Shown here: positions 1,387 to 55,880 of the stretch, piece by piece
How the letters are laid out: the number at the start of each line of letters is the position of its first letter
Numbering within the stretch: the first letter of the stretch is position 1
Virus record (IMG/VR): IMGVR_UViG_3300046804_005146
Span: 1 to 64,000 of that record
DNA: 64,000 nucleotides
From: a virus
Strand: one strand, 5' to 3'
The notes under the pieces: generated by a model
Told to the model about the DNA's origin: nothing
Database searches by the model: none
The model's input: the letters and a program-made list of their open reading frames with translations, nothing else
Translations under genes and position numbers: made by a program

Positions 1387-2358
1387 TTATTGCTTAGACA
1401 TCTTGACGTGTGGAGTAGAAACGTTTGAAAGATTACTAGAATACTTATATAGAACGTTAGAATTATTTGCTCTAACAGGGTTAATATCAATACCACCACG
1501 TCTTGCATACAAACACATAACAAACAGCTCCTCTGGTTCAAACTTATCATACAAACGTTTGTAAATGCATTCACAAATTTCTTCATGGAAATGACATTCA
1601 CTTCTAAACGAAACAATATACTTCAACAAGCTAAGTTTATCGATGCTATGTTTGCCGACATAATGGATAAACACATCACCCCAGTCTGGCTGACTAGTGA
1701 CACGGCAATTACTCTTAAGTAATGCAGAGTGGAAGTTATGTTCTACTGCTAAGTTATATACTGCTTCACTCTTTAAAAGATCAGGTGTTTCTTGAAAAGT
1801 GTCAAACATTGCTGATACAATATCCTTTTCATTTATAGATGTTTCTAGCGTATTGTAGTAATATTTTTCGTACGCTGCATGAGCATTTACCTTTACTGTA
1901 TCGTATTCTTGCGGTGTAATAAAACCAACTGACACTTTAGTGTCTAACAGTTTAGATAGATCTGCACTTGCTATCTTAGTAAACTTATCAATAGCTAAAT
2001 GAAAAGACGATCCCATCTTCTCCATGTTAAAGCTATTGAAGTACAGTTTAATAGACTTACTTTCAACGATATACTTACTATCACATGGATACTTTATCTT
2101 AGCTACACCTGTAACGGGACAACCATTATCGAGTAGAAAAGAACATTCATATGCATTCCAAGTATCGAATCCAACGAAAGGCAAACTATCATCTTTGATA
2201 CCTAGATACGTGCGATTATTCTGTCTTGGTTCTTTTACAAGAAGAGAACTATCGTATGTACTCTTGTATTGAGATACCTTACCAAGATGCACACTGATGT
2301 TTGAATTGTCTAGTACTTGATTCATATTAAAGTTTAATTGTTGGTTTGTATTTTTCAA
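1387..2358 (-). CDS. queF: NADPH-dependent preQ0 (7-cyano-7-deazaguanine) reductase, bimodular type
   Basis: IVESKSIKLYFNSFN, catalytic SNCRVTSQPDWG, FHEE, YARRGGIDINP. Confidence 0.93.
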   Translation of the reverse strand: MKNTNQQLNFNMNQVLDNSNISVHLGKVSQYKSTYDSSLLVKEPRQNNRTYLGIKDDSLPFVGFDTWNAYECSFLLDNGCPVTGVAKIKYPCDSKYIVESKSIKLYFNSFNMEKMGSSFHLAIDKFTKIASADLSKLLDTKVSVGFITPQEYDTVKVNAHAAYEKYYYNTLETSINEKDIVSAMFDTFQETPDLLKSEAVYNLAVEHNFHSALLKSNCRVTSQPDWGDVFIHYVGKHSIDKLSLLKYIVSFRSECHFHEEICECIYKRLYDKFEPEELFVMCLYARRGGIDINPVRANNSNVLYKYSSNLSNVSTPHVKMSKQ

Positions 2359-2890
2359 TAGTAGATCTGATAATAGAGTATCTTTCTTCTACACCACCAG
2401 ATAGTCTAACAATATTGTTCAATTTATACTCACTGATATAGTATTCAAAAAGATCGATAATTTTGTTTCTAAATTCAATATCAATACTTCTCACACCATC
2501 ATCAACCAACGGTATCGATGGATCAGTATAAAACATTAAATCATATCTACCTTTCAATTGCTCAAAAACATATTCAGCATAATGACCAAGTCTGTGATCT
2601 AAATTTTGCTTATAACTAATATAAGTTGTATACACCAATCCATCCAACGCACATCTATCAAACACACAATCTCTATCTTTATTTCTCAAAAAGTTATCAA
2701 CATGACTGTTGATAGTCATCATTTGAGTAAAGCTAGTACCATGCTCATTAATAGAAATACTATACCTTTCTTTTAAACTTCTAGTTATTTCAGGCTCAAA
2801 ATGCCAGTCTTTGAAATATACATCTTCTTTCATCTTATTAAGAAGAGTACTTTTACCTGAACTCTGTGCACCTGTAAATGAAATAATCAT
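2327..2890 (-). CDS. P-loop nucleotide/nucleoside kinase-like protein (AAA_28/thymidylate kinase-like)
   Basis: N-terminal GAQSSGKST, FDRCALD, DDGVR lid. Confidence 0.75.
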   Translation of the reverse strand: MIISFTGAQSSGKSTLLNKMKEDVYFKDWHFEPEITRSLKERYSISINEHGTSFTQMMTINSHVDNFLRNKDRDCVFDRCALDGLVYTTYISYKQNLDHRLGHYAEYVFEQLKGRYDLMFYTDPSIPLVDDGVRSIDIEFRNKIIDLFEYYISEYKLNNIVRLSGGVEERYSIIRSTIEKYKPTIKL

Positions 2891-3690
2891 CTGCGTAGAA
2901 TAGACTTAAACATTGTAGTATTGTAATAGATGTTATCCATCTCAGTATCATTAACTTTATGTTCAATTAAGTCTGCTAATTTCACAGTTGGTTTATCATT
3001 GAGCCCAAAATCACTATTATATCTCAATCCTTGAATACCAGCCACGACAGGATTAGACGTATCACAACTCCTAATATTATAAATGTTATTGTCAACATAA
3101 TATCTAAATTCTTTAGCTAATGAACACCCGAGTAGATGATGCGGTTTATTCCAATTCCAAAAACCGTCTTGAATAAGACGGTTAATAAATTGCTGTCTAC
3201 CATTACACCAACGTTCAAGTTTGTTTCTACCTCTACCAGTAATAATATAATAAGAAAAATCGAAACTGATTGCAATATAATCGGCATTTTCTGACATAAA
3301 CCTATAACAATCTACTAGTTCATCATAAGTCTTACCTTGCACGGCTCCAATCTTTACCCCCGGTAAATTCTTGTATTCGTTTACAAACTTAACATAACTA
3401 TTTACAGTCTCGTAAGCATCTTCCAACACATCAGGCACGATATAATATGTTGGCTTAAGACTATCTACATACCCTGCAAACTTTTTGCTATCAAAAGCTT
3501 TACCTAACTCAAAAATACTATTATCTAAAAGAACATCTCTATTGTTGAGTAATGAATGCTTAAAAAAATTATAATATTCGGAGTGTTTCTCAAATAGATG
3601 TACTAATGCATAGTCATAGTCATTATACACTAGAGAGTTTTTAAGAATTGAAATAGGAGATTCGTGTGAAACTAAAATTTTATTACCCAT
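2887..3690 (-). CDS. TGT/DpdA-like TIM-barrel base-exchange enzyme (putative 7-deazaguanine insertion)
   Basis: LLDNS, IVPDV, AVQG, HHLLG, SCDTS motifs in TGT order; first gene of operon with queF. Confidence 0.65.
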   Translation of the reverse strand: MGNKILVSHESPISILKNSLVYNDYDYALVHLFEKHSEYYNFFKHSLLNNRDVLLDNSIFELGKAFDSKKFAGYVDSLKPTYYIVPDVLEDAYETVNSYVKFVNEYKNLPGVKIGAVQGKTYDELVDCYRFMSENADYIAISFDFSYYIITGRGRNKLERWCNGRQQFINRLIQDGFWNWNKPHHLLGCSLAKEFRYYVDNNIYNIRSCDTSNPVVAGIQGLRYNSDFGLNDKPTVKLADLIEHKVNDTEMDNIYYNTTMFKSILRR

Positions 3691-15487: not shown

Positions 15488-15650
15488 TAATCTTAGTTAG
15501 TTTGTACCCATTTTTTGTTTCTTCCCAAAGAATTTTATCACCAGTTTTCCATCCAGCTTGATCTAATAAGCTATCAGGAAACTCAATATATAAATCTTCT
15601 TTATCTTTTTTAACATCAAGCAGCCATACTAATTTATTTTTCTTTTTCAT
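15474..15650 (-). CDS. AbrB/MazE-like small DNA-binding protein (58 aa)
   Basis: Not in ORF track. LYIEFPDSLLDQAGWKTGDKILW; overlaps both neighbours. Confidence 0.65.
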   Translation of the reverse strand: MKKKNKLVWLLDVKKDKEDLYIEFPDSLLDQAGWKTGDKILWEETKNGYKLTKINDNI

Positions 15651-23486: not shown

Positions 23487-24309
23487 TTTTCAATTTTTTA
23501 ATGATTTGAATTACTTCTTCTTTACCAACAAAAGGAGGCTGATTAGGGTAATGGCCGTGTTTACGTAAGTAAATTTCTCTACCACCATACACGTTTTTAG
23601 CCCACTGTTCGGATTTATTTGCAATGGAAGAGTTATCTATAGCTCCCGGTGCTTCAGTTAAATACTCTGTGCTATCAGCTAAATCAGCAAACCACCAAAA
23701 TGGTGGGTGGTAACCTGCTTTGATAATACGGTATGTATGGTCTACATGCTCCCATGCGTTATAAAATTCTTCATCAATATAACCTACCTTTTCTAAAACT
23801 TCTCTTGTAAAAAAAGAAAACATAGCTACTGTATGCTCATATAGTGCAATCTTCAAATCTTTACTATATTCTATAACAATTTTTGGATTAGGTTCACTGT
23901 GTTGATCTAATAAATGTCTGTTATGTAAATCAAAATTTTGAATAGTTTGTTTTCTATTAAAAGGAGAGCCAGGGCCGTAATTAAAGTGATGTATACCTGA
24001 TAATTTAAATGCTTTAATATACTTGTCGAATATTTCTCCGTTTTTAATAAGCATATCATCTTCAATAATAAAGATGTAATCGCAATCTTTATCATAAAGA
24101 TATTTCATGGCTTTATTTTTAGATTTACCTACCCCTAAATTTTTAGGATTATCTAACCAAACACCAAAAGATAAATCAAAATCGTTGATAGGGGATCCGT
24201 CATTTACAACTACCAATTCATTAATTTTGCTGTATGGAATCGTGTTTAAAAGGTTGCGTAAGTAATCGGGTCTATTACAAGTAATGATGCCTACACCTAT
24301 TTTAGCCAT
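23443..24309 (-). CDS. GT2 glycosyltransferase
   Basis: IITCNRP, VVNDGS, IEDD, VGYIDEEF, EHVD. Confidence 0.85.
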   Translation of the reverse strand: MAKIGVGIITCNRPDYLRNLLNTIPYSKINELVVVNDGSPINDFDLSFGVWLDNPKNLGVGKSKNKAMKYLYDKDCDYIFIIEDDMLIKNGEIFDKYIKAFKLSGIHHFNYGPGSPFNRKQTIQNFDLHNRHLLDQHSEPNPKIVIEYSKDLKIALYEHTVAMFSFFTREVLEKVGYIDEEFYNAWEHVDHTYRIIKAGYHPPFWWFADLADSTEYLTEAPGAIDNSSIANKSEQWAKNVYGGREIYLRKHGHYPNQPPFVGKEEVIQIIKKLKNESTVFNTYNKTST

Positions 24310-27880: not shown

Positions 27881-28687
27881 TTAAACCTTTAATGCTTTAT
27901 CCCAAATTTGTAGATGCAGTCTATTGGAAAACTTAAAGCCATGTTTCTTACAAATATCAGCTACAGCTGGCGCAACATTTGTAAGCTCATTACGGCTACC
28001 ACACATAGGCATAATCCAAACACGATTGCGTGGGAGATTAATGTCAGGGTTATTAATAAATTTAGTAAAAACTTCATCTAGATCTGATTCTTGTTTAGCT
28101 ACAAATTTAAAGCACGCATATTGTTGTACTAAAAACTTAAGGACGTCCGGCTTGAAACGTTTATCTTCCGGGTCTCCATTATTAGTTAGTTTTGGTGAAG
28201 TTGTGAATGTACAAATCCATTTACCACTATCAACCCATTCCTGATCTGGCATAACAGTACCATTAGTTTCAAAGTCAATATAAAGATCAGGTTTGTCATT
28301 TTCTGACCTATCTACTACTTTATCAAAACTACTAAACCCCCAACGTTCGTGTATAAATTTAACAAATTCAATTAAATTTTTCTGTTGAATAAAAGGTTCA
28401 CCACCAGTAATCTTAAAAATTGCACCTTCTCTTAAACGATCATGGTATCCGTTCTTTTCAAAAAATTGAGCAATCTCTTCGAAAGTCATTTTATTCTTTT
28501 TAGACCAACTTACGTAGCTATCACACCCAAAAGGTGCATCTTCACTCTTAAAACCAATGCACGTGAGATTACACATTGATAGTCTCATGAATACTGACGG
28601 CCATCCGATATACTCACCTTCACCTTCAAGAGTGTAAAATACAAAGTCGTCTGATAAAAACAAGGTCTTACTCGGATCAATATTCAT
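27881..28687 (-). CDS. queE: 7-carboxy-7-deazaguanine synthase (radical SAM)
   Basis: FYTLEGEG, FMRLSMCNLTC..CDS, TGGEP, ETNGT, SPKL, RLH. Confidence 0.9.
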   Translation of the reverse strand: MNIDPSKTLFLSDDFVFYTLEGEGEYIGWPSVFMRLSMCNLTCIGFKSEDAPFGCDSYVSWSKKNKMTFEEIAQFFEKNGYHDRLREGAIFKITGGEPFIQQKNLIEFVKFIHERWGFSSFDKVVDRSENDKPDLYIDFETNGTVMPDQEWVDSGKWICTFTTSPKLTNNGDPEDKRFKPDVLKFLVQQYACFKFVAKQESDLDEVFTKFINNPDINLPRNRVWIMPMCGSRNELTNVAPAVADICKKHGFKFSNRLHLQIWDKALKV

Positions 28688-29481: not shown

Positions 29482-29709
29482 TTCTTTTAAAGCCTCTTCA
29501 GTACTAACATGTCTTACGTTATTTTTAGGTAAGACGGGGTCAGGCTTTTTATTCTGTTCAATTAACTTTTGATTCATTAGTTTGTTGACGTTGTTCTCAA
29601 GCTGAACTAATTTTGGATCTCTAGTTTTTTCTTGAAAAGAAGATTTTACTTCGTGTAAATTATTTTTGGGTAAAATTTTTAAAAGCCTGACCTGTTGTTC
29701 TAAGTTCAC
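29443..29709 (-). CDS. Hypothetical protein
   Basis: 88 aa, overlaps queD stop. Confidence 0.5.
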   Translation of the reverse strand: MNLEQQVRLLKILPKNNLHEVKSSFQEKTRDPKLVQLENNVNKLMNQKLIEQNKKPDPVLPKNNVRHVSTEEALKELAALLKSTDNKT

Positions 29710-30389
29710 CGTTTGTTATTATTTCCCCATGAGGTTCCAGCAAATGGGTCTTTAAATGTATTTATTACTTTTTTGTTATATAATGGCGGAACGTTGTTAG
29801 TATTCTCAGTCTTTTGACTCATAGGAGAAGTCAAATTCTTATTAACAAATGTAGGATTATCTTGTTTAGTTTCAGTTGGCTGTACTGGAGTAGCTTCTTG
29901 AATTGTTACTGTAGTATCAGTTGTAGATGTTAGATTAACTTTTTCAAAAACAGCTGAATTACCTTCATGCTCCCACACTTCAACTTTTTCGCACCAGCAA
30001 CGTCCATCAGTGCTATTTTTCACGTAGCTATCAGCTATATTGTGACAATATTCAGCAAACTTTTCTATACCTACACCGTCATCAAATACGCGTAAGTCAA
30101 TAATCTTCTTTTCATGTAATAGTTGAAAGATGGGTAGCTCAGGATCGTTACGCCATACACAAGTAGTATGATCAAATGCATCTTCTAATTGTTTTTTAAG
30201 CTCTTTAAGTGATCCAAAATCTACCACCCAATTATTGTTATCAAGTTGATTGCAACTAAACCAAAACTTTGCTTGTAATCTATATCCATGTAAAAATTTA
30301 CAATGAGAGTCTGCAAAGGGTTGTCTAAAAGCTGTGGAGCCGAGGGGAAGTACTTTAGTCGACTGGTAAATGTTTTTCGCGAGAATCAT
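29706..30389 (-). CDS. queD: 6-carboxy-5,6,7,8-tetrahydropterin synthase with low-complexity C-terminal tail
   Basis: HCKFLHGY, VVDFG, FDH, VEVWE; start at ATG 30389, 6 nt after TATAAT. Confidence 0.88.
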   Translation of the reverse strand: MILAKNIYQSTKVLPLGSTAFRQPFADSHCKFLHGYRLQAKFWFSCNQLDNNNWVVDFGSLKELKKQLEDAFDHTTCVWRNDPELPIFQLLHEKKIIDLRVFDDGVGIEKFAEYCHNIADSYVKNSTDGRCWCEKVEVWEHEGNSAVFEKVNLTSTTDTTVTIQEATPVQPTETKQDNPTFVNKNLTSPMSQKTENTNNVPPLYNKKVINTFKDPFAGTSWGNNNKR

Positions 30390-30420
30390 AGAATTATTAT
30401 AGTTTAGATTTTTCAAATTT

Positions 30421-30606: not shown

Positions 30607-31263
30607 ATGAAATGTGAACGTGTGAAGCACCCGACTATTCCAACAGCTAATAGTAATCTTCCAAGATCAGAAGAAGAAAAGCAACAAATCATTGAAAATG
30701 CAACCATTGCTTATGAAGCGTTTTTAGATGCTCTATGCATTGATTGGCGTAATGATCCTAATAGTGAAGGTACGCCACGTAGAGTAGCTAAAGCTTATGT
30801 TCATGACATTGCTTCTGGCTGTTATGATGAGCCACCTAAGATTACTTCATTTCCAGCTGACGGTTATGATGGTATGGTATTTCAGGGAGGTATTCCTGTA
30901 AAGTCACTTTGTTCACATCATCACCTTGCTTTTACTGGAGTAGCACATGTTGCTTATATTCCAAGTCTTGAAGGTAGAGTAATTGGACTTTCAAAGCTCA
31001 ATAGAATTGTTGAGTTTTACGCACGTAGACCTCAGATTCAAGAAGGTCTAACAATGCAGATTCATAAGGCAATAGACGAGGTTTGTGAGAAGAACCAAGG
31101 TGTTGCAGTTATGGTGAGCGCAACTCACACTTGCGCTTGTAATAGAGGTGTTCGTCACGATGGGTGCGAGATGAACACCTCAAAACTTTCAAAAGACTTC
31201 TTAACTGACGCAGCTGTTAGAGCTGAATTTTATCAGTTTATTTCACATTGGGCTCGTCAGTAA
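30607..31263 (+). CDS. folE: GTP cyclohydrolase I
   Basis: TPRRVAK, SLCSHH, GLSKLNR, RPQIQE, HTCACNRGV. Confidence 0.95.
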   Translation: MKCERVKHPTIPTANSNLPRSEEEKQQIIENATIAYEAFLDALCIDWRNDPNSEGTPRRVAKAYVHDIASGCYDEPPKITSFPADGYDGMVFQGGIPVKSLCSHHHLAFTGVAHVAYIPSLEGRVIGLSKLNRIVEFYARRPQIQEGLTMQIHKAIDEVCEKNQGVAVMVSATHTCACNRGVRHDGCEMNTSKLSKDFLTDAAVRAEFYQFISHWARQ

Positions 31264-31569
31264 TGATTTTTTAATATAATGGCTGACTAATTGTTTAGAA
31301 GTGTTTAGTCTTTTAGCAATTTCTGAACAATTTAAGTCTTGATTAAAATACATATCATACATTTGTTTTATCACTTTTGGTGAAGTTTTTCTATTAACTT
31401 CTGCATATGCGTTAGCTTTTCTAAGATGATATAAAACAGTTGAAGCTGGTATGTTCAAAGCTTTAGATATTTGAGACAAAGTTTTACCTTGTTTTTGATA
31501 CATATCAAAAATTGCATTTATAGCATCCTGAGAATAAGCTTCATTTAAAAATTGTTTATATGTTTTCAT
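31243..31569 (-). CDS. Tandem two-HTH protein with capsid-targeting-like N-terminus
   Basis: MKTYKQFLNE; LSQISKALNIPASTVLYHL and CSEIAKRLNTSKQLVSHYI. Confidence 0.75.
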   Translation of the reverse strand: MKTYKQFLNEAYSQDAINAIFDMYQKQGKTLSQISKALNIPASTVLYHLRKANAYAEVNRKTSPKVIKQMYDMYFNQDLNCSEIAKRLNTSKQLVSHYIKKSLLTSPM

Positions 31570-33971
31570 GATTTTAAAAACACAGCACGAAACATTACAT
31601 TATTGAACGAACCTTTATATATGTTCGCATAAACTATATCTAAATTAACACTAGATGTTTTAGCATAATTTACAATACCATTTATGTACAGGTTAGCTAT
31701 TGGTGCACTTTCATTGTATCGGTTTAAATTAAAACCAACAGTTTCACTTTCCATACTTTGTTGGGTAGCATCGTTTGGCTTATTTTGTTTAAAATAACCT
31801 TTATCATCTAGCTTTAAATCAAATAAGTTCTTTTGTTTATTATACACATTTGTTTTAGTTATATTTGCATTTTTAGCAGCAAACAATGTATATGTCACAA
31901 ATAATAAACCACCAGGAGCTAATAATTCTTTAGCAGCTTTTACCGGGTATAAAAACGGGTTATGTAGAACGTTAAGTCTCATTGGTGTATTCCCTATTAA
32001 AGTGCCTGGTATACCTAAATAGTCGAGATCAATTATATTAAAATTATTCGGTACGTATAATCTTTTTTTATCACCTTCAGTTTTATAAAAAAAGTGTTTA
32101 TCAGGTGCATTAATTAATTCATTTATATTAGCATCAGTGACATTTGCGTGTATTTTATTGCCGGAGTCTTTTTGAGCTTTTAATCCAAATTGTTTTGCTA
32201 ATTTTAATCCTCTTGCTTCTGCTCCATATACTTCAACGTTTTTGTTAAACGTTGATGATATACCTTTCTCAAAAGAGTATTCTTCAGGTAAACTTAATAC
32301 TTTAATGGTATCAGGCATTGCATTAACGTAGCTTGAAATAGCGTCAAATTCAAACTTTCTATTTTTAAGTTTCCCTTGTATGCTACTAAATTCCACTCCA
32401 GGATCAAAAACTTCACCTTTTTCTTCAGCTTGTGTTCTCAGCTCTTTATAACGTTTTTTTAGATTTGCAATTATCTCTTCTTTTGATAGGTTATCCTTCA
32501 ATCCTTGCTTTCTTATCTTCTTACCTTCGGCTGAATTTTTGAATTTTTTAAATCTACGATTCATCGTTTCAATAGCCTTACGTCCTGCTCTAGAATATTT
32601 TGTAATACCACCATGTCTAAACATTTTTAGCCAATTGTATTCGTTTAAATTAAATGATATATTATAGTCTTTTAATTGTTGTAAGAATTTTGCAAATGGC
32701 ATCTTTTTAACTCGATTCATTAGCATAGTTATTTCGTCAATATAATTGACGTTAATAATATTGTTTAATTCTCTAGATGTAAATTTGGAAGGATCTACTG
32801 GCTGAAATTTTGGATCATTTATAGATCCTATTTTTTGCTTAGCATATAATTTAATTAAATCACTTTCCTTTTCCTGTAAATATTTTATAAATTTTTCAGT
32901 TATTTCAGAGTTATTGATAATATTGGGAGGTAATGAAACAGAATCTACACTATACACTCTGCCTGTATCTTTTGCTGGTTTTAATGTTTTTGGTGACAAC
33001 TTATTACGAGGTTCATGCGGGGGTTTAGTTGGTATTTCTCCACTCTTGTAAAGTTTGTGATTTTTTAAGACAATCACTACTGTTTTTGGAGACACATGCA
33101 ACGCATTAGCAATTTTTATTATTTTTACACCCTCCTGGCGCATCCTTATAATTTCATCGATTATTTTTTGTCGTTGTTGCTTACGTATATCTTTACCAAA
33201 TCTAGCTATTACAGTTGCTACTGTACTATAAGGTAAATCTATTATATCTGAAATCTCACCATTAGATTTACCTTGTTTAGCTAGATCTAAAATTTGATTA
33301 CGCTTATTAAGCATTTTTGAATTAACTGTTAATTTAGCGTAATCTGGTAATGATCTTAAATAATCTGTAATAGTAGAATGGCCGATACCGACCCTTTTTC
33401 CTATTTCTGTAACACTTAAACCTTGCTGTCTCAGACGCTTAATCTCTTTTTTCTTTAACAGTGTTAATTTAGATTCACGTGCGTAGTCACTCGGGTTTAA
33501 CAAACCTTTTGCAATCAACTGTTTTCTTATTCTATACACTGTACCTTCGTCAACATTTAACATTTTTGCTATTTTTGCGCCACTATACCCCTTTATAGTT
33601 AAATCACGTATTTTATTGTATCTTGAACTTATATGTTTTATACCCAGTTCATTTAAGAATCTTGATATTGCATTACTACTAAATCCTAACGCTTTACCGA
33701 TTTCAGTGTAATCGTAATTTTTATTAACATAATCCAATATTTGATCTTTAAAATCACTTACTGATCGATTTGGAGATATAGTTTTGTGTGAAATTTTAAA
33801 ATCGGGGTTATTTTGTAATACAATTCTTCTTATCGTTTTATTATCCAGTTTAAACTGATTACTTAGAGAATTTATACTAACTCCCGGCTGTTTAGAAGCT
33901 TGAGTCACCTGTTGTTCTATTTCAGGTGAAACTTTAAAAACTTCAGATAAGAAAAAATTTTTAAAATTCAT
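31566..33971 (-). CDS. Six-HTH array fused to class I SAM methyltransferase-like domain
   Basis: Six HTH repeats in first ~305 aa; C-terminal KVLSLP, VYGAE, NIIDLDYLG, LLAPGGLLFVT. Confidence 0.65.
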   Translation of the reverse strand: MNFKNFFLSEVFKVSPEIEQQVTQASKQPGVSINSLSNQFKLDNKTIRRIVLQNNPDFKISHKTISPNRSVSDFKDQILDYVNKNYDYTEIGKALGFSSNAISRFLNELGIKHISSRYNKIRDLTIKGYSGAKIAKMLNVDEGTVYRIRKQLIAKGLLNPSDYARESKLTLLKKKEIKRLRQQGLSVTEIGKRVGIGHSTITDYLRSLPDYAKLTVNSKMLNKRNQILDLAKQGKSNGEISDIIDLPYSTVATVIARFGKDIRKQQRQKIIDEIIRMRQEGVKIIKIANALHVSPKTVVIVLKNHKLYKSGEIPTKPPHEPRNKLSPKTLKPAKDTGRVYSVDSVSLPPNIINNSEITEKFIKYLQEKESDLIKLYAKQKIGSINDPKFQPVDPSKFTSRELNNIINVNYIDEITMLMNRVKKMPFAKFLQQLKDYNISFNLNEYNWLKMFRHGGITKYSRAGRKAIETMNRRFKKFKNSAEGKKIRKQGLKDNLSKEEIIANLKKRYKELRTQAEEKGEVFDPGVEFSSIQGKLKNRKFEFDAISSYVNAMPDTIKVLSLPEEYSFEKGISSTFNKNVEVYGAEARGLKLAKQFGLKAQKDSGNKIHANVTDANINELINAPDKHFFYKTEGDKKRLYVPNNFNIIDLDYLGIPGTLIGNTPMRLNVLHNPFLYPVKAAKELLAPGGLLFVTYTLFAAKNANITKTNVYNKQKNLFDLKLDDKGYFKQNKPNDATQQSMESETVGFNLNRYNESAPIANLYINGIVNYAKTSSVNLDIVYANIYKGSFNNVMFRAVFLKS

Positions 33972-38073: not shown

Positions 38074-38499
38074 CTAATGATATAGTTTTTCTAGTAATAA
38101 TCTAGGAGCCCTACCTATTCTACAATTTATAATTCCATTATAAAATCCATCTTTTATTAATACATCATTATCGAATTGCATTTTAGCTTCAAAATACGCT
38201 AGTTCAAATTTACTATCACATACTCTAACAATTTCGAAAGTAAAGTTATCTTTTCCAAGCTTTTGAATATCTTCATTTAATTCTGTGGACGAAGATGTGT
38301 ATTCTTTCCAATCAGTTTCAATATCAAAATGTCTTTTATTTTTACGTCCCTTTAACGGCTTTAACTTTTTAACCGTTTTCATTTGTTTTTTACCGATATA
38401 TTTTCTACCGTTAGTTTTATTAGTTATAATGTATATAAAACCATACGGCAGATTTGTTTCATCAATCTGTAAAGTTGTTTGCCAGTGACCTAAATCCAT
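38074..38499 (-). CDS. GIY-YIG endonuclease-family protein (Seg-like)
   Basis: GFIYIITNKTNGRKYIGKK, E..Q, YN; start moved to ATG 38499. Confidence 0.85.
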   Translation of the reverse strand: MDLGHWQTTLQIDETNLPYGFIYIITNKTNGRKYIGKKQMKTVKKLKPLKGRKNKRHFDIETDWKEYTSSSTELNEDIQKLGKDNFTFEIVRVCDSKFELAYFEAKMQFDNDVLIKDGFYNGIINCRIGRAPRLLLEKLYH

Positions 38500-38894
38500 T
38501 GTAAATGGGTACAGTTGCAATTAATTATTTTATCCAAAGTATTTTTGTAAATTGAAGCAATTTTATATATTTTTTCTTCAGAAAAATCGTTTAACCAATT
38601 AATAAGATATTCACTACCAGGTGTAAATGCGGCTTTTAAACGTGTGACTCCCGCTCCAGGTACATCACTTATGTTACCGTTAATGAGCCTTTTTTGAACA
38701 ATGCTAAGAGTTTTTTGCATATGGTTTACGATATATTCTTTTGACAATATATTAGTATCGCTATCTTCATACAATTTAATAATGTCTGCATCAACTTCTT
38801 CAGACTCTGGACATGTTTCATTGACAGGGGTTAAAAGAGTCGTGATATCAACAACTTTGCGTTTGTTTTCAACAAATACTTTAAAAGATTCCAT
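38490..38894 (-). CDS. Hypothetical protein with capsid-targeting-like N-terminus
   Basis: MESFKVFVE start. Confidence 0.6.
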   Translation of the reverse strand: MESFKVFVENKRKVVDITTLLTPVNETCPESEEVDADIIKLYEDSDTNILSKEYIVNHMQKTLSIVQKRLINGNISDVPGAGVTRLKAAFTPGSEYLINWLNDFSEEKIYKIASIYKNTLDKIINCNCTHLQWI

Positions 38895-49123: not shown

Positions 49124-50221
49124 ATGGAAAAAGACATTGACGAAATTTTAGGTGAAATAGATAAGATTAATCCGTATGCTTCCTATCTTAATGAAGGAGC
49201 ATTATCTAATGTAGATGGTTGGATTGACACAGGGTCAATGGTCTTGAACGGATTAGTTTCTGGTTCCCTCTTCGGAGGTGTACCTAAGAGTAGACTTACA
49301 ATGTTTGCAGGGCCGTCTATGACTGGTAAGTCTTATATTGTTCAAAAAATTCTAGCAGCAGCTCAAAAAGACGGTTTAGTTCCTGTTATCTTTGATAGTG
49401 AAAATGCAATTGATAAAGACGGAGCTGCTGCTCTTGGTTTAGATACTAGTAGAGTAAAATATGTTCCTACTTTTAGTATTGAAGAGTGTAGAAACACCAT
49501 TTACAACTTTTTAACTAAAGCTAAAGAGAAGGGACAAACAGGTAAATTCATTATTGCAATTGATTCACTAGGTAATATGGAGAGTGAATTGCAGATCAAC
49601 AGAATGGAAAAGCAGAGTACCAGTGCAGATATGGGCAGTAGAGCTAAAGCAGTTAAGTCTTTACTTAGAACTTGCACTCAGTTAGCTGCTATTACCAAGA
49701 CTACTATACTTTGCACTAATCATATCTACGAAGATCCTAGTGCAATGTTCCCGTCATTAGTAAAAGAGATGCCAGGTGGTAGAGCTGCAGTGTATTTACC
49801 ATCTGTAACAGTACAACTTGCAAGAAAGCCAATGAAAGAAGACAATCATATTGATTCTAAACTTGCAGTTGGTCAAAAAAGTTACCCCGGTGTTATTTTA
49901 CGTGCATTAACTGCTAAGAATCGGTTTGTTAAACAGTATCTAGAAGGTGAGATGTATCTAAGTTTTGAAAGTGGTTTAGCTAAGTACTACGGTCTTCTAG
50001 AACTTGCAGTTGGGTTTGGTGTGTTGCAACAGTCTGGTAGTACATATACCAAAGCTGACGGTGAAAAGATCGGTCAATACGGTAGATGGAAAGATGATAC
50101 TGAAATCTGGGACAAGTATATTGTACCTGGTATTGAAGATAAGATTAAAGTAGAGTGGAAATATGGTCAAAACAATAGTCAGAGAGACGAAGTGCCTGAT
50201 GAGGTGGAAGAAAATGAATAA
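49124..50221 (+). CDS. uvsX: RecA-like recombinase UvsX
   Basis: IDTGS, GPSMTGKS, DSE, IDSLG, NHIY, GG, KNRF. Confidence 0.92.
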   Translation: MEKDIDEILGEIDKINPYASYLNEGALSNVDGWIDTGSMVLNGLVSGSLFGGVPKSRLTMFAGPSMTGKSYIVQKILAAAQKDGLVPVIFDSENAIDKDGAAALGLDTSRVKYVPTFSIEECRNTIYNFLTKAKEKGQTGKFIIAIDSLGNMESELQINRMEKQSTSADMGSRAKAVKSLLRTCTQLAAITKTTILCTNHIYEDPSAMFPSLVKEMPGGRAAVYLPSVTVQLARKPMKEDNHIDSKLAVGQKSYPGVILRALTAKNRFVKQYLEGEMYLSFESGLAKYYGLLELAVGFGVLQQSGSTYTKADGEKIGQYGRWKDDTEIWDKYIVPGIEDKIKVEWKYGQNNSQRDEVPDEVEENE

Positions 50222-50981
50222 TATATTGAACGAAACAAAAAAGTTAGTATTATCTTTTAGCGGTGGTATGGATTCAACTGTACTACTTTATATGGCAGCT
50301 AATATGGGTTATAATGACATTTATACCTTATCGTTTAATTACGGTCAAAGGCACCATAAAGAGCTTAAATGCATGAAGAAACAACTTAAGACTATTACTA
50401 AAAAGTACCCTGATGTTAAAGTGAGTAATAAAATTGTAGATGTTTCGTATATTAAGGATATTGCTATTAATTCATCATTAACTAACCATGCATTAGCTAA
50501 TCCAAACGTCAAAGAAATGGCAGGAGATGCTCAACCAGTATCATATGTGCCATTTAGAAATATGATGTTTTTATCTATTGCATGCTCTTATGCAGAATCA
50601 GTAGGATGTGATGATGTATGGTATGGAGCTGCTCAAGCAGATTCTTTAGCAGGTTATTGGGACGGTAGTCAAGAGTTTATAGCTTCTGTAAATGAAACTA
50701 TTTCTCTTAATAGAAAAAGTAAGATTAAAATATCTGCACCTCTTTTAGTAATGTCGAAAAAGAGAATAGTAGAAGAAGGTATTAAATTAGGTGTTAACTT
50801 TGAAGACACTTGGACATGCTATTCAAACAGAGATGATGGATTAGCAGATGCTGATACACCGTCAAGTAGTTTAAGATTACGTGGTTTTATAGAAGCAGGT
50901 TATCGTGACCCTATTCAATACGTTCAACAAAAGAAGTTAAACGAGATTTATAAGCAAAAAGATTGTAAATCAATAACCTAA
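50214..50981 (+). CDS. queC: 7-cyano-7-deazaguanine synthase
   Basis: SGGMDS, FNYGQRH, YVPFRNMMF, TWTCY; start moved to ATG 50214. Confidence 0.92.
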   Translation: MNNILNETKKLVLSFSGGMDSTVLLYMAANMGYNDIYTLSFNYGQRHHKELKCMKKQLKTITKKYPDVKVSNKIVDVSYIKDIAINSSLTNHALANPNVKEMAGDAQPVSYVPFRNMMFLSIACSYAESVGCDDVWYGAAQADSLAGYWDGSQEFIASVNETISLNRKSKIKISAPLLVMSKKRIVEEGIKLGVNFEDTWTCYSNRDDGLADADTPSSSLRLRGFIEAGYRDPIQYVQQKKLNEIYKQKDCKSIT

Positions 50982-52328
50982 ACCGTATTTACGATCTACA
51001 CGGTGGTTATTCTGTTGTTTACGTCTAAAAGCTTCTACCATTTGTTTGTTTATTTGTTCGTTAGATAGCTTTATGACAACCTCAACAGGTTTATTTTGAG
51101 TTTGTGGTTTAACTTTTTGCATACATTTAGAACATTTGCAACCATGTACACATGGTATTTCTTCTTCATCTTCTGAATCCCAATCAGAAGACCCGCCACT
51201 GACTCTGTAACGTCTATCATTATCATCATCTTTAAAGAAGTCATCACTATCTTCTAGATCTTCAGTCTCTGGTTCTGGTGGTAATTCTTCGATATCACCT
51301 GGTTCTTCAGGGATTTTAGAATAATCTGGTTCAGTAGAAAATACTTTTGGTGGGGTTTCTCCCTTTTTAGGTTCTTTTGTTATATCATAAACAAAGATTT
51401 CACCAACATTTTCTGGCTTTATTTGATCAATAGTAATATCACCACTACCAACCCCCTTTAGGTTAATTCTGTACTGATAATTACCTACTTCAGCTTCAAA
51501 TATATTAAAACCACTTACGCCTCTCATTAAAAACTTTATTTCATCATCTGGTTGCAGATTTTTCTTCAATGTATCGTAAGCGTCTGTACCAGGTGTAAAC
51601 TTTGTAGGTTCCTTTTCAGTAGCTACATCTATCACTTCTTCTCTTGTAGATAAATCTCTTTTACCAGTTTCTGGATTTATAGGTTTATTTTTAGCTGGAG
51701 TAAGCTCTCTTAAAGCAGCAGCAGTATTTAAAAATACTACCAATCTACTATCATCATACCCTTCTTCTTTTTCTTCGATATAATTATTAAACTCTTTATG
51801 AATATCTTCTAAAAATTTAGAAGGATCTTTTTGAGATACAATCATCTTATCAAACAAATGATTTACATCTGTACCAAACATTTTTCTGGTAAAGATTAAC
51901 TTTGCACTTTCTATATCATCTAAATTTAAATCCTTTATTTTTAAATTCTTTTGATCATTCCCTTTAAGTTTAAATTCATATCTATTACTACCAAAACGAA
52001 CAAAATAAACAGTATCACCATCTTCATCTACATCTCTAACTAGCCTTTTTTCAGGCTTTTCCATAGAAACTACATCAGTTAAAGCTTCTTCTGGTGAAAT
52101 GTCTCTTTCCGTCTTATAATCATTTGGTAAGTCTTCTATATGTTTGTCTTGAAGAAACTGGTAAAATAATAGTCTAGCATCTCTATAAGGAGTACCAATA
52201 TTGAGCTTCTTCATCTTGCTCATTGCATTTTTTAATATAGGAGCAGTATTTTCATTTAAAATGGTATATGCAGATTCATTCAAAACAGCAGTTTTTTGAA
52301 CCCAGCTACAACTAAATAGACTATTCAT
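50970..52328 (-). CDS. Acidic late protein with internal domain duplication
   Basis: 452 aa; TAAATA 7 nt upstream; two similar beta-rich units; CVHGCKCSKC. Confidence 0.7.
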   Translation of the reverse strand: MNSLFSCSWVQKTAVLNESAYTILNENTAPILKNAMSKMKKLNIGTPYRDARLLFYQFLQDKHIEDLPNDYKTERDISPEEALTDVVSMEKPEKRLVRDVDEDGDTVYFVRFGSNRYEFKLKGNDQKNLKIKDLNLDDIESAKLIFTRKMFGTDVNHLFDKMIVSQKDPSKFLEDIHKEFNNYIEEKEEGYDDSRLVVFLNTAAALRELTPAKNKPINPETGKRDLSTREEVIDVATEKEPTKFTPGTDAYDTLKKNLQPDDEIKFLMRGVSGFNIFEAEVGNYQYRINLKGVGSGDITIDQIKPENVGEIFVYDITKEPKKGETPPKVFSTEPDYSKIPEEPGDIEELPPEPETEDLEDSDDFFKDDDNDRRYRVSGGSSDWDSEDEEEIPCVHGCKCSKCMQKVKPQTQNKPVEVVIKLSNEQINKQMVEAFRRKQQNNHRVDRKYGLGY

Positions 52329-52350
52329 ATGTTAATATTTAATGCTGATC

Positions 52351-52378
52351 TTGATTTAAATTAGAGGTTGTCTATAAT
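52351..52378 (+). promoter_or_regulatory. Sigma70-like promoter of amidotransferase-GNAT-GT operon
   Basis: TTGATT-N16-TATAAT-N6-ATG(52385). Confidence 0.7.
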
Positions 52379-52384
52379 TATGAT

Positions 52385-53047
52385 ATGTGTGGAATCTATG
52401 GTAGCACAAAGGTAAGTAAGTTTGAAATACTTGATCAAGCTAACAGACAGAGAGGTAATTTTGCATCAGGTATATATTACAGTGATGGTAAAAGCTATGA
52501 TTTTCAGAAAACAGAAGGAAGCTTTAATTGGAACAAAATACCTTTAGAAGAAGGTCTAGTTTACTTAGGCCATAATCAAGCACCTACATCCACTGAACGT
52601 GTGTTTAAAGAGCATAACAGCCATCCTTTTGTTAGAGATAACTGGATTGTAGCTCATAACGGAGTGTTAACCAATTTTGAAGAACTTAAAAGAGACTATA
52701 TACCAGATCATGAAAATGTAGTTGATAGTAGTATAATTCCAGCATTACTACTAATGTTTGAACAAAAAGCAGATGATTGTACATCTCAAGAAAAAGAACA
52801 AAATGTTATTAAAACAGTGTTAGAATTGTTAGAAGGTACGTTCGGTCTATGGATAGTTAATTTGAGGACTTTAAACATTTATATTACTAGACAAGGTAGT
52901 ACACTATTCTATGATCATAATAGTTTTAGTTCAGTAAAAGGAACTGATTTTAAAGAAATCGAAGAAGGTAGTTTATATAGATTTAACAAAAAGGGTGTAA
53001 CTAAAGTAGGTACCTTTAAATCTAAATCACCATTTTTAGAATTATGA
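52385..53047 (+). CDS. Class II (Ntn) glutamine amidotransferase, stand-alone
   Basis: MCGI nucleophile, RG..SG, GHNQAPT, HPF, AHNG, VDS. Confidence 0.88.
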   Translation: MCGIYGSTKVSKFEILDQANRQRGNFASGIYYSDGKSYDFQKTEGSFNWNKIPLEEGLVYLGHNQAPTSTERVFKEHNSHPFVRDNWIVAHNGVLTNFEELKRDYIPDHENVVDSSIIPALLLMFEQKADDCTSQEKEQNVIKTVLELLEGTFGLWIVNLRTLNIYITRQGSTLFYDHNSFSSVKGTDFKEIEEGSLYRFNKKGVTKVGTFKSKSPFLEL

Positions 53048-53514
53048 CATACGAATATTGTTACGAACCATCTCAGTCAGATAAAATGAAGATGATGGAA
53101 TTCATTTACAAGAATACAGATTCTTTTATTTTGAATACATTCGGTTATCTGTGGGAGTCAAGAAACTGGTGGGAAACATTTCCAGTTCAATTAGTGAAAA
53201 TTGATAGTGACATTATTTGTTTGCATGCCTATACTAAAAATAATAAAGCTCCTGGATTAATGAAAACTTACTACGTTGTAACTCATAAAGCTTTTAGAGG
53301 TCAAGGGTTAGCTAAAAAACTGACAATTCAATCTATAAGAGATAGCCAGTATGATTGTGAAAATTATTTTGTAAATTCAGAAGAAAATAGCCCCGGTGTA
53401 AGTTTTTATAAAAAACTTTTCAACGACAATTACACGATGACTAAGAACGAATTTGGTACTTTAGATTACAATTTTCAAGCACCGATTAAGACATTATTAT
53501 TAGAACACGCATGA
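53044..53514 (+). CDS. GNAT-family N-acyltransferase
   Basis: VVTHKAFRGQGLAKKL motif A; N..GVSFYKK motif B. Confidence 0.8.
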   Translation: MTYEYCYEPSQSDKMKMMEFIYKNTDSFILNTFGYLWESRNWWETFPVQLVKIDSDIICLHAYTKNNKAPGLMKTYYVVTHKAFRGQGLAKKLTIQSIRDSQYDCENYFVNSEENSPGVSFYKKLFNDNYTMTKNEFGTLDYNFQAPIKTLLLEHA

Positions 53515-54191
53515 ATAAGCTAATCATTTACACAGTATCAGCTAAACCTAACGATAAAATAGGTAAAACCCCTATTGCTAAATCACTAGATGACCATTAT
53601 TTTGATTTCAAAGCTAATAATACAGAATCACTGTCAAAAGTATATAATAAAGCCATAGAACATTACTCTCAAAAAGATTACACATATCTAGTTTTAGTCC
53701 ATGATGATGTTTATATTAATTGTAAAGATTTTTATCAAAGAGTAGAAAAATATCTAAACACATACACTGTATTTGGATTAGCGGGAAATACAGAAGCAAC
53801 CATAACAGAGCCAACTTTATGGCATTTAATGGGTGGTAGACATGAACTAGTTGGTTGTGTTGCTCACGGTACCCCGGAAAAATATTATTACACTTCTTTC
53901 GGACCATTACCAAAAAGAGCATTAATGATTGACGGTGTAATGATTGGTATTAATCTTAAAAAATTACCAAAGCAAGTTAGATTTGATGAGAATTGCCCAG
54001 CAAGATTTCATTTTTATGATTTAATTTTCTCAATGGAATGCGCTCTTAACAAAGTGCCAGTTGGAGTAGTGGATGTACCTATCATTCATGAATCACCTGG
54101 CTTGAGAGAGTATACAGATGAATGGAAAAAAGGTCAGGAATACTTTTTAACCAAGTATAATAAATTTAAAGGCAAGACTTTAAGACTTTGA
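53511..54191 (+). CDS. GT-A glycosyltransferase-like
   Basis: SLSKVYNKAI, LVHDDV, IDGV, FHFYD, HESPG. Confidence 0.75.
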   Translation: MNKLIIYTVSAKPNDKIGKTPIAKSLDDHYFDFKANNTESLSKVYNKAIEHYSQKDYTYLVLVHDDVYINCKDFYQRVEKYLNTYTVFGLAGNTEATITEPTLWHLMGGRHELVGCVAHGTPEKYYYTSFGPLPKRALMIDGVMIGINLKKLPKQVRFDENCPARFHFYDLIFSMECALNKVPVGVVDVPIIHESPGLREYTDEWKKGQEYFLTKYNKFKGKTLRL

Positions 54192-54219
54192 TTGTCTAAT
54201 ATTGTATCTATAATAAAGT

Positions 54220-55548
54220 ATGGATTTGAAACTGAATCTAGATGAGTATGAAAATGTGATTGTATATAAATCACTTACAGATGATAGATATTTGGCTACT
54301 ATTATAGGTCATATTAATCCTTCTTACTTTAAAGACAAAAATATTAAGCATATCTTTGAAATTATTAAGTCATTTTACTTAAAACGCAATGCAGTACCTA
54401 CTATAACTGAACTAAAATCATATATCAATAGTGGTGAACTTAAAGAAGCTTTTAAAGTAGTTATACGTAATTTTTCTAATATAGATAAAAACTTAAATCC
54501 AGAAGAATTAATTGAAAATACAGAGAGATACTTAAAAGAAAGAGCTATTTACCATACAATGTTGGATATTGCTGAAGATGTTGGAAATGGTAAAATAGAT
54601 ACAGGGTTTATTTTAGATAAATTTGAAAAAAGTTGCAATGTCAATTTAAAGACTGATGTTGGCTTAGATTTGTTTAAAAACTTTGATAAAGTTGTAGATG
54701 ACTTAAACGTTGCTCAACCTGTAATATCTAGTGGGTGGGGTTGGTTAGATGAAAAACTAGATGGAGGTTTTCTTCAAAATGGTAGAGCAATTTATATTTT
54801 TGCAGGTGAGACTAACGTTGGTAAGAGTATCTTTCTTGGAAACATAGCTAGTAATATTGCATTGCAAGGTAAAACAGTACTACTCATATCACTAGAAATG
54901 AGTGAGTTAATTTACGCAAGAAGACTATCATCTAACATTACGAAGATACCTATCAGAGAGTTGAAGTCAGAGGTAACTACCTTGAAGCAGCAAATAGACG
55001 AGGTTAGTCAAGAAAATCCTAATTGCAAAATTCTTATTAAAGAGTTTCCTCCAAGTACAGTTACTTCAAATCAAATTAAATCTTTTATAACTGGTATTTT
55101 AACTAAAGGTGTAAAAATTGATGCTGTTGTGTTGGATTACGTCAATCTACTTAAAGGTAACTCAGGGGTCAATAGTTACGAGAGAATTAAAGAAGTTACC
55201 GAACAAGTTAGAGCTTTAAGTTATGTTTTTAATTGCCCGTTTATTACAGCAACTCAATTGAATAGATCTGGGTATGATGTCAATAACCCAGGTCTTGAAA
55301 CAATCGGTGAAAGTATAGGGTTAGCAGCTACTGCTGATGTTATTATTAGTATCTTTCAAGATGATGAAGACAAGGAGCTCGGGGTAGTCAAGATTGGTAT
55401 GATGAAAAATCGTTTCGGTGCTAATTTTGGAACTGTTTCAATGAAAATAGATTATAGTACATTGACTATTACAGAAGATGAAAGTCTTAATCAAGATGGA
55501 GATATGGACGATTTGAATAGTACTCTTCAAAAATTGAGTAAAAGTTGA
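54220..55548 (+). CDS. Replicative helicase gp41/DnaB-like
   Basis: GETNVGKS, SLEM, LDYVNL, TATQLNR, KNRFG. Confidence 0.94.
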   Translation: MDLKLNLDEYENVIVYKSLTDDRYLATIIGHINPSYFKDKNIKHIFEIIKSFYLKRNAVPTITELKSYINSGELKEAFKVVIRNFSNIDKNLNPEELIENTERYLKERAIYHTMLDIAEDVGNGKIDTGFILDKFEKSCNVNLKTDVGLDLFKNFDKVVDDLNVAQPVISSGWGWLDEKLDGGFLQNGRAIYIFAGETNVGKSIFLGNIASNIALQGKTVLLISLEMSELIYARRLSSNITKIPIRELKSEVTTLKQQIDEVSQENPNCKILIKEFPPSTVTSNQIKSFITGILTKGVKIDAVVLDYVNLLKGNSGVNSYERIKEVTEQVRALSYVFNCPFITATQLNRSGYDVNNPGLETIGESIGLAATADVIISIFQDDEDKELGVVKIGMMKNRFGANFGTVSMKIDYSTLTITEDESLNQDGDMDDLNSTLQKLSKS

Positions 55549-55583
55549 ATATGTGGGAGCTTAACTAAATAGTTAAAGCTCAT

Positions 55584-55880
55584 ATGTCAAGAGAACAAGA
55601 TTTAATGCGAATGCCGCATGCTTTTATTGAAGATGAAGAGCTATCCCATGCATTTTATTCTTTTTGCACATTTTGTTACTTGTATTACGGTAAAAAGATA
55701 AATTTTGCTACTATCTTTACAAAGATATTACAAGAAGAAAAACTAAAAACTCTATATAAAATGTCAATTGCTGAGCCTAGCGATTTTGAAGCATTGAAAA
55801 TTTTTATAATGTTTGAGCCTTCAATTACTAAAAGCAAATACATTACAAAAATAATTAATAAAGGTCAGATTTTTAAGTAA
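55584..55880 (+). CDS. Hypothetical protein
   Basis: 98 aa ORF. Confidence 0.6.
   Translation: MSREQDLMRMPHAFIEDEELSHAFYSFCTFCYLYYGKKINFATIFTKILQEEKLKTLYKMSIAEPSDFEALKIFIMFEPSITKSKYITKIINKGQIFK

Follow-up and report, generated by a model that had tools for sequence, protein, structure and literature searches.

An IMG/VR virus record of 81.5 kb (IMGVR_UViG_3300046804_005146; estimated completeness 39%) contains in its first 64 kb, hereafter the window, a gene for a small acyltransferase of the GNAT family between the genes of a class-II glutamine amidotransferase (Gat) and of a glycosyltransferase (GT). We suggest that this GNAT is likely to be a preQ1/dPreQ1 N-acyltransferase, probably an acetyltransferase, making a base that has so far not been described, and that it is a candidate, with good support, for a new branch of a hypermodification system already known. 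Phage DNA is known to contain eight 7-deazaguanine bases, two of which carry a decoration on the preQ1 amine, namely a methyl group (DpdM) or a formyl group (DpdN); the third decoration of this amine predicted here is an acyl group, probably acetyl, added by an unrelated enzyme family, and the basis of the prediction is that one gene has repeatedly taken the place of the other in several lineages of phages from aquatic metagenomes. If it is true, the product nucleoside would lie 42 Da above dPreQ1 and 14 Da above the 324-Da fdPreQ1 species described in Cui 2023, the GNAT would be a new enzyme with which to place a bulky, uncharged group in the DNA major groove, and its gene could serve as a marker for finding such phages. 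The analysis also corrects the reading of the locus as one operon and one pathway, with the GT appearing as a bystander and Gat and QueF as a recurrent and compatible pair.

We also find it rather likely that the three neighboring genes have three distinct roles, the GNAT acylating the base, Gat acting as a glutaminase for QueC and the GT serving an unrelated acceptor. In this scheme, FolE, QueD, QueE and QueC would produce preQ0, with Gat feeding ammonia to QueC during the synthesis, QueF would convert preQ0 into preQ1, and DpdA3 would insert the base into DNA; the GNAT, as an acyl-CoA-dependent counterpart of DpdN, would N-acylate the 7-aminomethyl group, most simply with acetyl, to give 7-(acetylamino)methyl-7-deazaguanine in DNA. 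Action of the GNAT on the free base, on a nucleotide or on DNA would be compatible with the scheme. The GT would be a nucleotide-sugar GT-A enzyme, conserved in a wide T4-like group and working on an acceptor other than the deazaguanine base. The scheme builds on observed families, folds, motifs, gene order and phyletic patterns, from which we infer substrate, acyl group and product, acetyl being the default guess for a small GNAT, though other short acyl groups may be transferred instead.

GNAT and DpdN at shared gene positions

Close relatives of the GNAT were found at 59 viral-contig loci, in every one of which Gat lies directly upstream, with the GT and the replicative helicase gene gp41 downstream wherever the contig extends. 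A separate set comprises 59 distinct Gat-to-gp41 intervals, the window included, for which loci found through the GT were added and identical copies removed. In this set, the slot after Gat is occupied by the GNAT in 51 intervals and by a 182-aa PF00551 formyltransferase in the other eight, and no interval has both or neither. The slot formyltransferase shares 40% identity along its entire length (E 1e-39) with DpdN of phage immuto_2-6A (hereafter immuto) and 40 to 46% with the DpdN proteins of the DpdA3 cassettes in immuto and in the metagenomic records G011 and G013. In a gp41 tree (quick IQ-TREE run on 79 distinct rows from 122 loci, with a midpoint root for drawing only), the loci with DpdN in the slot form one clade with a support of 100, nested among the GNAT loci. 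A second large gp41 clade (clade II) has an empty slot, so that Gat abuts the GT, and DpdN is instead located inside the DpdA3 cassette.

The GNAT is also found in such cassettes. In particular, a scan for the loci of distant GNAT members, which used the small alignment A6, revealed the order DpdA3-GNAT-kinase-QueF in locus L195 (a 137.7-kb record), DpdA3-kinase-GNAT-QueF in L204 and L205, and GNAT-kinase-QueF in L206, the last three being all of the three metagenome loci found. The corresponding order in immuto is nucleoside triphosphate pyrophosphohydrolase, DpdA3, a small open reading frame (ORF), DpdN (KNV73_gp067, named as the fdPreQ1 gene in Cui 2023, PMC10516641), kinase and QueF, while clade-II cassettes read DpdA3-DpdN-kinase-QueF (G011) or DpdN-kinase-QueF (G013). 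The window cassette consists of DpdA3, kinase and QueF with no DpdN, as do those of three near-complete relatives, and no PF00551 match was obtained among the 74 window ORFs scanned against Pfam. Every GNAT member whose context is visible has 7-deazaguanine neighbors, which, along with the exchange of places with DpdN, bears out the link between GNAT and QueF/preQ1 that the original prediction had drawn from the window alone; the co-occurrence of GNAT and queF that it proposed to look for was found as well, QueF and DpdA3 being present in all three near-complete GNAT-type genomes.

At the level of genomes, GNAT and DpdN are mutually exclusive in those examined. The GNAT is present, and DpdN or any PF00551 match absent, in G001 and G003 (both 100% complete) and in G016 (77% complete); DpdN is present and the GNAT absent in G011 (58% complete) and G013 (81% complete); and neither a GNAT nor a DpdN/PF00551 match occurs in the que-less genomes G008 and G009 (both 100% complete). 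A precedent for the chemistry is offered by PaMx11 gp48, a GNAT that acetylates the aminomethyl group of 5-aminomethyldeoxyuridine (5-NmdU) in DNA (Lee 2021, PMC8989533). It follows from the exchange in the DpdN slot, the cassette positions, the mutual exclusion, the conserved motif described below and the gp48 precedent that the GNAT may replace DpdN and N-acylate the aminomethyl group of preQ1.

With regard to the protein itself, the AlphaFold2 (AF2) model of the GNAT has a predicted local distance difference test (pLDDT) value of 91, and a Foldseek search of the PDB returned only GNAT structures among the top matches listed (probability 1.00, template modeling [TM] score 0.55 to 0.73). Across 23 sequences, G88 of the R85-G-Q-G88-L-A90 segment is invariant, with a conservation of 90% or more for R85 and A90, and we take R85-x-x-G88-x-A90 to correspond to the acyl-CoA pyrophosphate-binding motif Q/R-x-x-G-x-G/A. 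The database gene caller starts the protein later (142 aa), and the N termini of homologues favor the long, 156-aa start. A word-indexed search gave 38 GNAT protein clusters, all metagenomic, three of which are labeled as generic GNAT or RimI-like (JGI) and none with a specific function, and an exhaustive profile search of 1.84 billion representatives returned 45 matches at E <= 1e-3. Two of these carry a fused domain of a kind that modifies DNA bases, a 5-hydroxymethyldeoxyuridine (5-hmdU) DNA kinase in one and a Tet/JBP oxygenase in the other. Furthermore, P0174 is a kinase-GNAT fusion, the kinase part of which is 35% identical (E 1e-34) to the kinase of the window cassette; a scan of viral contigs for this fusion found nothing.

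Small GNATs are common phage accessory genes, and it could be imagined that this one acts elsewhere, for example on a polyamine, on a molecule resembling an antibiotic or on a protein of the host or phage, and that its proximity to que genes is a matter of hitch-hiking. The best structural neighbors among the matches listed, which are protein N-terminal, ribosomal-protein and polyamine acetyltransferases, would agree with such a target. However, the family occupies four gene positions, all within or next to deazaguanine genes and in several unrelated gene orders, it includes the fusion to a cassette kinase, it excludes DpdN, and it counts only 45 representatives, on the basis of which we regard a target unrelated to deazaguanine as highly improbable.

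The preferred assignment, namely that of an acyltransferase acting on the preQ1 amine, leaves room for more than one stage of action. A protein of about 105 aa resembling MazZ (PF18909, dATP/dGTP diphosphohydrolase N-terminal) is encoded directly after the GNAT or DpdN in 41 of the 59 intervals (e.g., L001:442-756 and L090:7478-7825), and no such gene was found in the 81.5-kb record of the window. Removal of dGTP by this protein would fit a complete replacement of G, perhaps before replication. DpdA3 is the DpdA subfamily giving complete G replacement, with fdPreQ1 in immuto_2-6A (Cui 2023, PMC10516641). In immuto and in Campylobacter phage CP220, DpdA3 has a kinase orthologue as its neighbor, and the kinase is present in every DpdA3 cassette seen, from Campylobacter and Flavobacterium phages to those considered here; the word "kinase" has no occurrence in passages of Cui 2023 (PMC10516641). 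In record G003, a gene resembling nucleoside 2-deoxyribosyltransferases (PF15891; L002:6497-6982) is located between the GNAT and the MazZ-like gene. A small phosphoribosyltransferase gene was noticed among the que genes at L195:14439-14867 (by eye) and, in immuto, at L061:6840-7235 (Pfam PF00156), and its product could convert a free deazaguanine base to a nucleotide. The kinase of every DpdA3 cassette, the kinase-GNAT fusion, the MazZ-like gene in 41 of 59 intervals and the deoxyribosyltransferase-like gene in one interval would together hint at an action of acyltransferase and kinase on a nucleoside or nucleotide while dGTP is destroyed, in the manner of Z-genome phages. Even so, we hold it rather unlikely that N-acetyl-dPreQ1 replaces all guanines, entering DNA partly via the nucleotide pool rather than only after replication.

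Several points weigh against the proposed function of the GNAT. The window protein stays under the Pfam cut-offs of Acetyltransf_7 (PF13508; 24.5 versus 27) and Acetyltransf_1 (PF00583; 20.4 versus 20.7), which its relatives L001 and P0174 exceed, and the fold search gives generic GNATs and no substrate clue among the matches listed. No match was obtained by tblastn against 50,697 GenBank phage records, and the family is known from genes alone, in uncultured phages. The isoelectric points of the family (median 7.75, range 5.5 to 9.15) give no pointer to DNA binding, those of the DpdN, Gat and GT families being likewise uninformative in this respect. The genomic context is not visible for most of the distant matches (P0168 to P0202), and several records are fragments, 39 to 81% complete. 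G002 (88% complete) encodes, in addition to the GNAT, a 230-aa Fmt-like formyltransferase that has no DpdN similarity at E <= 0.01 and the gene of which is surrounded by deacetylase and glycosyltransferase-like genes. The function of DpdN is itself predicted, not demonstrated (Cui 2023, PMC10516641), and the alignment of the GNAT family with PaMx11 gp48 by hhalign (probability 89%, E 2e-6, 85 columns), made with no control GNAT, is taken here as general GNAT likeness. Finally, a swap between formyl- and acetyltransferases would also be expected from a pathway to N-acyl amino sugars, and in 10 of the 59 intervals the GT does have nucleotide-sugar genes as neighbors.

The glycosyltransferase upstream of gp41

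The GT scores 45.9 bits against Glyco_tranf_2_5 (PF13712; cut-off 27) and conserves H64-D65-D66, a DxD-type motif. Its AF2 model (pLDDT 93) has a GT-A fold, and the best PDB neighbors listed are the UDP-binding majastridin structures 2qgi and 2nxv (TM 0.72; 2qgi is a UDP complex), followed by a viral GT and by protein O-glycosyltransferases. Judging from the sequence and the model, the protein is very likely a real sugar transferase. The DNA glucosyltransferases of T4 have a GT-B fold, unlike the window GT, and none of them was among the structural matches listed. The family includes 259 protein clusters and 389 viral stretches, and tblastn against GenBank phages gave no match.

In 15 distinct loci with neither QueC nor Gat in the vicinity, an orthologue of the GT (40 to 46% identity) immediately precedes gp41; L096, which would be the sixteenth GT-only row, was left out because the contig ends too close to the GT. 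Moreover, G008 and G009, complete genomes with terminal repeats, have the GT and lack QueC, DpdA3, Gat, GNAT and DpdN, the same DpdA3 query being positive in G001 to G003. G016, which has a GNAT cassette, contains no GT of this family, and no GT was seen in the GNAT-bearing cassettes of L195/G016 and L204 to L206. Since the GT is found upstream of gp41 in complete genomes that are devoid of deazaguanine genes, its distribution indicates that it is not tied to the deazaguanine base and is a bystander conserved at this position; the earlier idea that it adds a sugar to the base is not supported. GT homologues occurring independently of queF had been named in the original prediction as grounds for refuting it, and for the GT this is what was observed.

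The same distribution bears on the original prediction that Gat, GNAT and GT form a single pathway, leading to an acylated and glycosylated 7-deazaguanine. The tight packing of the three genes with their ATGA overlaps and the order Gat-GNAT-(MazZ-like)-GT, constant in all 51 GNAT-type intervals, would be in keeping with one pathway, and so would the 10 intervals in which the GT has beside it a cytidylyltransferase whose C-terminal part is kinase-like (recognized by eye, no family match) and a second cytidylyltransferase, to which some intervals add a cupin of the mannose-6-P-isomerase type (e.g., L090:7818-8906, 9549-9986 and 9959-10285; nine other intervals). These flanking genes look like a private nucleotide-sugar supply. 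A joint pathway is nonetheless very unlikely in our view, given the GT in que-less genomes and the GNAT cassettes lacking a GT, and an N-acylated aminomethyl group would offer no obvious sugar acceptor. Glycosylation of a hydroxymethyl pyrimidine by the GT was considered and dropped: of five records checked for PF00303 (thymidylate-synthase-like hydroxymethylases), G003 alone has a match, and G000, G001, G008 and G009 have none.

Known sugar pathways can lead to either N-acetyl or N-formyl amino sugars, and it is possible to hypothesize that Gat, an acyltransferase (GNAT or formyltransferase) and the GT make an N-acyl amino sugar and transfer it to a glycan, protein or DNA, with no relation to preQ1. 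This would be consistent with the best Gat matches, which are GlmS glutaminase domains, with the cytidylyltransferases and the cupin that flank the GT in some relatives, and with the cluster of glycosyltransferase genes of about 8 kb carried by the phage. The formyltransferase of the slot, however, is an orthologue of DpdN, immuto has no match to either Gat or GT, and the GNATs located between DpdA3, kinase and QueF have no GT or sugar genes seen around them, while Gat has no sugar isomerase domain and tracks QueC. An amino-sugar pathway is thus quite unlikely to account for the locus, and acylation of the preQ1 amine is retained as the preferred function of the GNAT.

Gat, QueC and a proposed role in the supply of preQ0

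Gat matches GATase_6 of Pfam with 30.3 bits (cut-off 27), and among 27 sequences there is no variation at its residues C2, R72, N92-G93 and D114 or in a C-terminal SPFL motif. The Cys, Arg, Asn-Gly and Asp residues are those of a glutaminase site with an N-terminal Cys nucleophile, with roles as in GlmS. The sequence matches in the PDB include the glutaminase domains of GlmS and PurF, the closest solved relatives, and no sugar isomerase (SIS) domain was detected on Gat with Pfam. Both Gat and QueC match phrog_10428, consistent with a fused Gat-QueC family; in the window they are not fused, and their genes stand at a distance of 1.4 kb, with an ORF on the opposite strand in between.

The distribution of Gat follows that of QueC. 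Gat is present in both que-bearing T4-like clades, i.e., in clade I and in the Gat-GT loci of clade II, it lies near QueC and DpdA3 in G016, and in the cultured Vibrio phage 2.275.O it is the gene that follows QueC, with QueF two genes away; the complete, que-less genomes G008 and G009 lack it. Among GenBank phages, 14 records have a Gat match, and immuto is not one of them. Since Gat tracks QueC and not the GT, a supply of ammonia to QueC is the role that we favor, in agreement with one of the two options in the original prediction. In particular, we consider it somewhat more probable than the reverse that Gat and QueC are the two halves of a split preQ0 synthase dependent on glutamine, with Gat as the glutaminase, because Gat is here always accompanied by an intact QueF and an amine-directed acyltransferase. 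The coexistence of QueF and Gat had seemed odd at first; it no longer does, as three lineages share the trio of QueC, stand-alone Gat and QueF. A predicted QueC-Gat complex, computed without controls, scored 0.22 against a mark of 0.32.

The QueC of the window retains one of the four Zn-binding cysteines of Bacillus subtilis QueC (3bl5) and has serines at the CxxC positions, and the consensus of most clade members retains two. As the Zn cysteines are kept in the QueC of L195, where Gat is present, an atypical QueC is not what calls for Gat.

The other option is that Gat and QueC convert preQ0 into archaeosine (G+), as in phage 9g, with dG+ as the only modified base or beside a preQ1 derivative. 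The fused Gat-QueC of 9g leads to dG+ and can also supply preQ0, and E. coli expressing it together with DpdA had dG+ in 9 to 18% of its Gs (Hutinet 2019, PMC6884629). This precedent, the intact catalytic residues of Gat and the atypical QueC of the window, with three of four Zn cysteines lost, would be compatible with dG+, and by analogy with the 9g fusion, which yields dG+ and not just preQ0, a second base is possible, which also counts against the scheme proposed above. On the other hand, every near-complete genome of the clade has an intact QueF and an amine-directed acyltransferase, the trio of three lineages would be hard to explain if Gat drained the substrate of QueF, and Gat is here unfused to QueC. 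We therefore regard dG+ formation as unlikely, and the split preQ0 synthase remains the role that we prefer for Gat.

Gene map of the window and comparison with known systems

The gene content of the window is T4-like (gp43, UvsX, UvsY, UvsW-like, gp46/47-like, gp41, gp32, ThyX, PhoH and Hsp20), with a GC content of about 32%. Its gp41 shares no more than 29% identity with that of cyanophages, and blastn of positions 50100 to 55600 against GenBank phages gave zero matches. On this sequence evidence, the source is an uncultured T4-like phage, distant from every cultured phage. The coordinates of the genes discussed are collected in the table.

Table. Deazaguanine genes, Gat-GNAT-GT genes and adjacent features of the window
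Feature	Position	Strand	Size	Basis
QueF, bimodular preQ0 reductase	1387..2358	-		QueF_N and QueF Pfam domains
AAA_28 (NadR/thymidylate-kinase-like) kinase of the DpdA3 cassette	2327..2890	-		Pfam
DpdA3-type DNA guanine transglycosylase	2887..3690	-	267 aa	tblastn to known DpdA3
QueE-like radical SAM enzyme	27881..28687	-		Family matches
QueD-like 6-carboxytetrahydropterin synthase	29706..30416	-		Family matches
FolE, GTP cyclohydrolase I	30607..31263	+		Pfam
queC	50163..50981	+		PF06508, 186 bits
Acidic ORF without a known family, in the queC-Gat gap	50970..52328	-	452 aa	Pfam/PHROG scans
Sigma-70-like hexamer pair TTGATT-16-TATAAT, just upstream of Gat	52351..52378	+		Consensus match
Gat, class-II glutamine amidotransferase	52385..53047	+	220 aa	
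GNAT	53044..53514	+	156 aa	
GT-A glycosyltransferase	53511..54191	+	226 aa	
gp41-type DnaB-like replicative helicase	54220..55548	+		Family matches

As the original prediction had it, the three genes are coupled by ATGA and lie between queC and gp41. The minus-strand 452-aa ORF separates queC from Gat. Both 4-base overlaps can be read from the sequence, ttATGAca at 53044-53047 for Gat/GNAT and gcATGAat at 53511-53514 for GNAT/GT, and 28 bases separate the GT from gp41. A weakly similar ORF occupies the gap between queC and Gat in many relatives, though not in all. The single promoter assumed for the three genes fared less well: its hexamers are indeed where they had been placed, but promoter-like sites in this AT-rich DNA (24 observed versus 24.6 +/- 4.2 in shuffles) are not above chance, so that the pair is a consensus match and no evidence for one promoter. 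No purine run resembling a Shine-Dalgarno sequence precedes the Gat ATG (52373-52387), and the TATAAT ends 6 bases upstream. This lack, together with the best DpdA3 match, which is in a Flavobacterium phage, may point to a host from the Bacteroidota.

With regard to the cassette, the DpdA3 of the window is 52% identical to that of immuto_2-6A, 45% to that of CP220 and 25% to that of phiST, and the annotation in MW353175 is DpdA; Pfam TGT has no match in the 81.5-kb record, the window DpdA3 matches no Pfam family at all, and the protein was recognized by tblastn. The window QueF scores 259.6 bits against TIGR03138, under the cut-off of 293, and has both Pfam domains and the NADPH motif ESKSIKLY, in the wording of Cui 2023 (PMC10516641), which upholds its earlier description as a true QueF.

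Some further features of these genomes were noticed. On the minus strand, positions 16266-24309 (about 8 kb) hold a run of about 10 genes, most with matches to glycosyltransferase families (GT47-like, DXD sugar-binding with a TcdA/TcdB-type GT domain, GT-D-like, GT25, GT2 and Fringe-like), which by these matches is a large glycan-building cluster; a DUF366 gene (15647-16237, minus strand) adjoins it. Next to folE, an 801-aa protein with many helix-turn-helix modules (31566-33971, minus strand) and, beside it, a 108-aa helix-turn-helix protein (31243-31569, minus strand) are encoded. Genes of SegE-like GIY-YIG homing endonucleases occur in the window (38074-38520, minus strand) and at L002:2712-3383, the latter inserted directly after queC. 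At L002:8789-11728, gp41 is apparently interrupted, with intein splicing-domain matches where a first ORF ends and where a later one starts, and an endonuclease-like ORF between the two.

The original prediction held N-acetyl-dPreQ1 to be undescribed, and in a full-text literature search, with most subscription journals outside its scope, no description of acetylated deazaguanine in DNA or of an N-acetyl preQ1 base was found. For DpdA3 in the phage sense, the same search finds only Cui 2023 (paper and preprint), and in the file Supplementary data.xlsx of that work the terms acetyltransferase, GNAT and glycosyltransferase have 0 occurrences.

Among the systems to which the present one can be compared, the Gat-QueC of 9g and Crenarchaeota (Hutinet 2019, PMC6884629) likewise combines a class-II glutaminase with the PP-loop enzyme QueC, whereas the window genes belong to separate transcription units and coexist with QueF; for them, a contribution to the preQ0 supply is the better fit. 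The majastridin structures (2qgi/2nxv) and the PF13712 GT-A family resemble the window GT, in that a UDP-binding GT-A protein superposes on its model and the HDD motif is kept.

Closer to the GNAT are enzymes that modify an amine of a DNA base. DpdM also decorates the preQ1 amine in phage DNA, with methyl transfer and another fold (Cui 2023, PMC10516641). PaMx11 gp48 shares with the GNAT the fold and the acetylation, here predicted, of an aminomethyl group in the major groove on a DNA base (Lee 2021, PMC8989533), the difference being that it modifies C5 of a pyrimidine instead of C7 of a 7-deazapurine. The window GNAT has no tblastn match to gp48, and the two are linked only via the remote member P0188; remote relatives of the GNAT family in which it is fused to a 5-hmdU DNA kinase match the gp48-gp49 region of PaMx11-like phages. 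The closest parallel is DpdN (Cui 2023, PMC10516641), which has the same partners as the GNAT (DpdA3, AAA_28 kinase, QueF, FolE, QueD, QueE and QueC), occupies the same slots and has the same proposed target, the amine of the 7-aminomethyl group. It differs in having a PurN-like PF00551 fold, a folate donor and formyl as the transferred group, where the GNAT of the window would use an acyl-CoA donor and transfer acetyl or another acyl group. We thus propose the GNAT as a functional replacement of DpdN, by analogy and not by homology.

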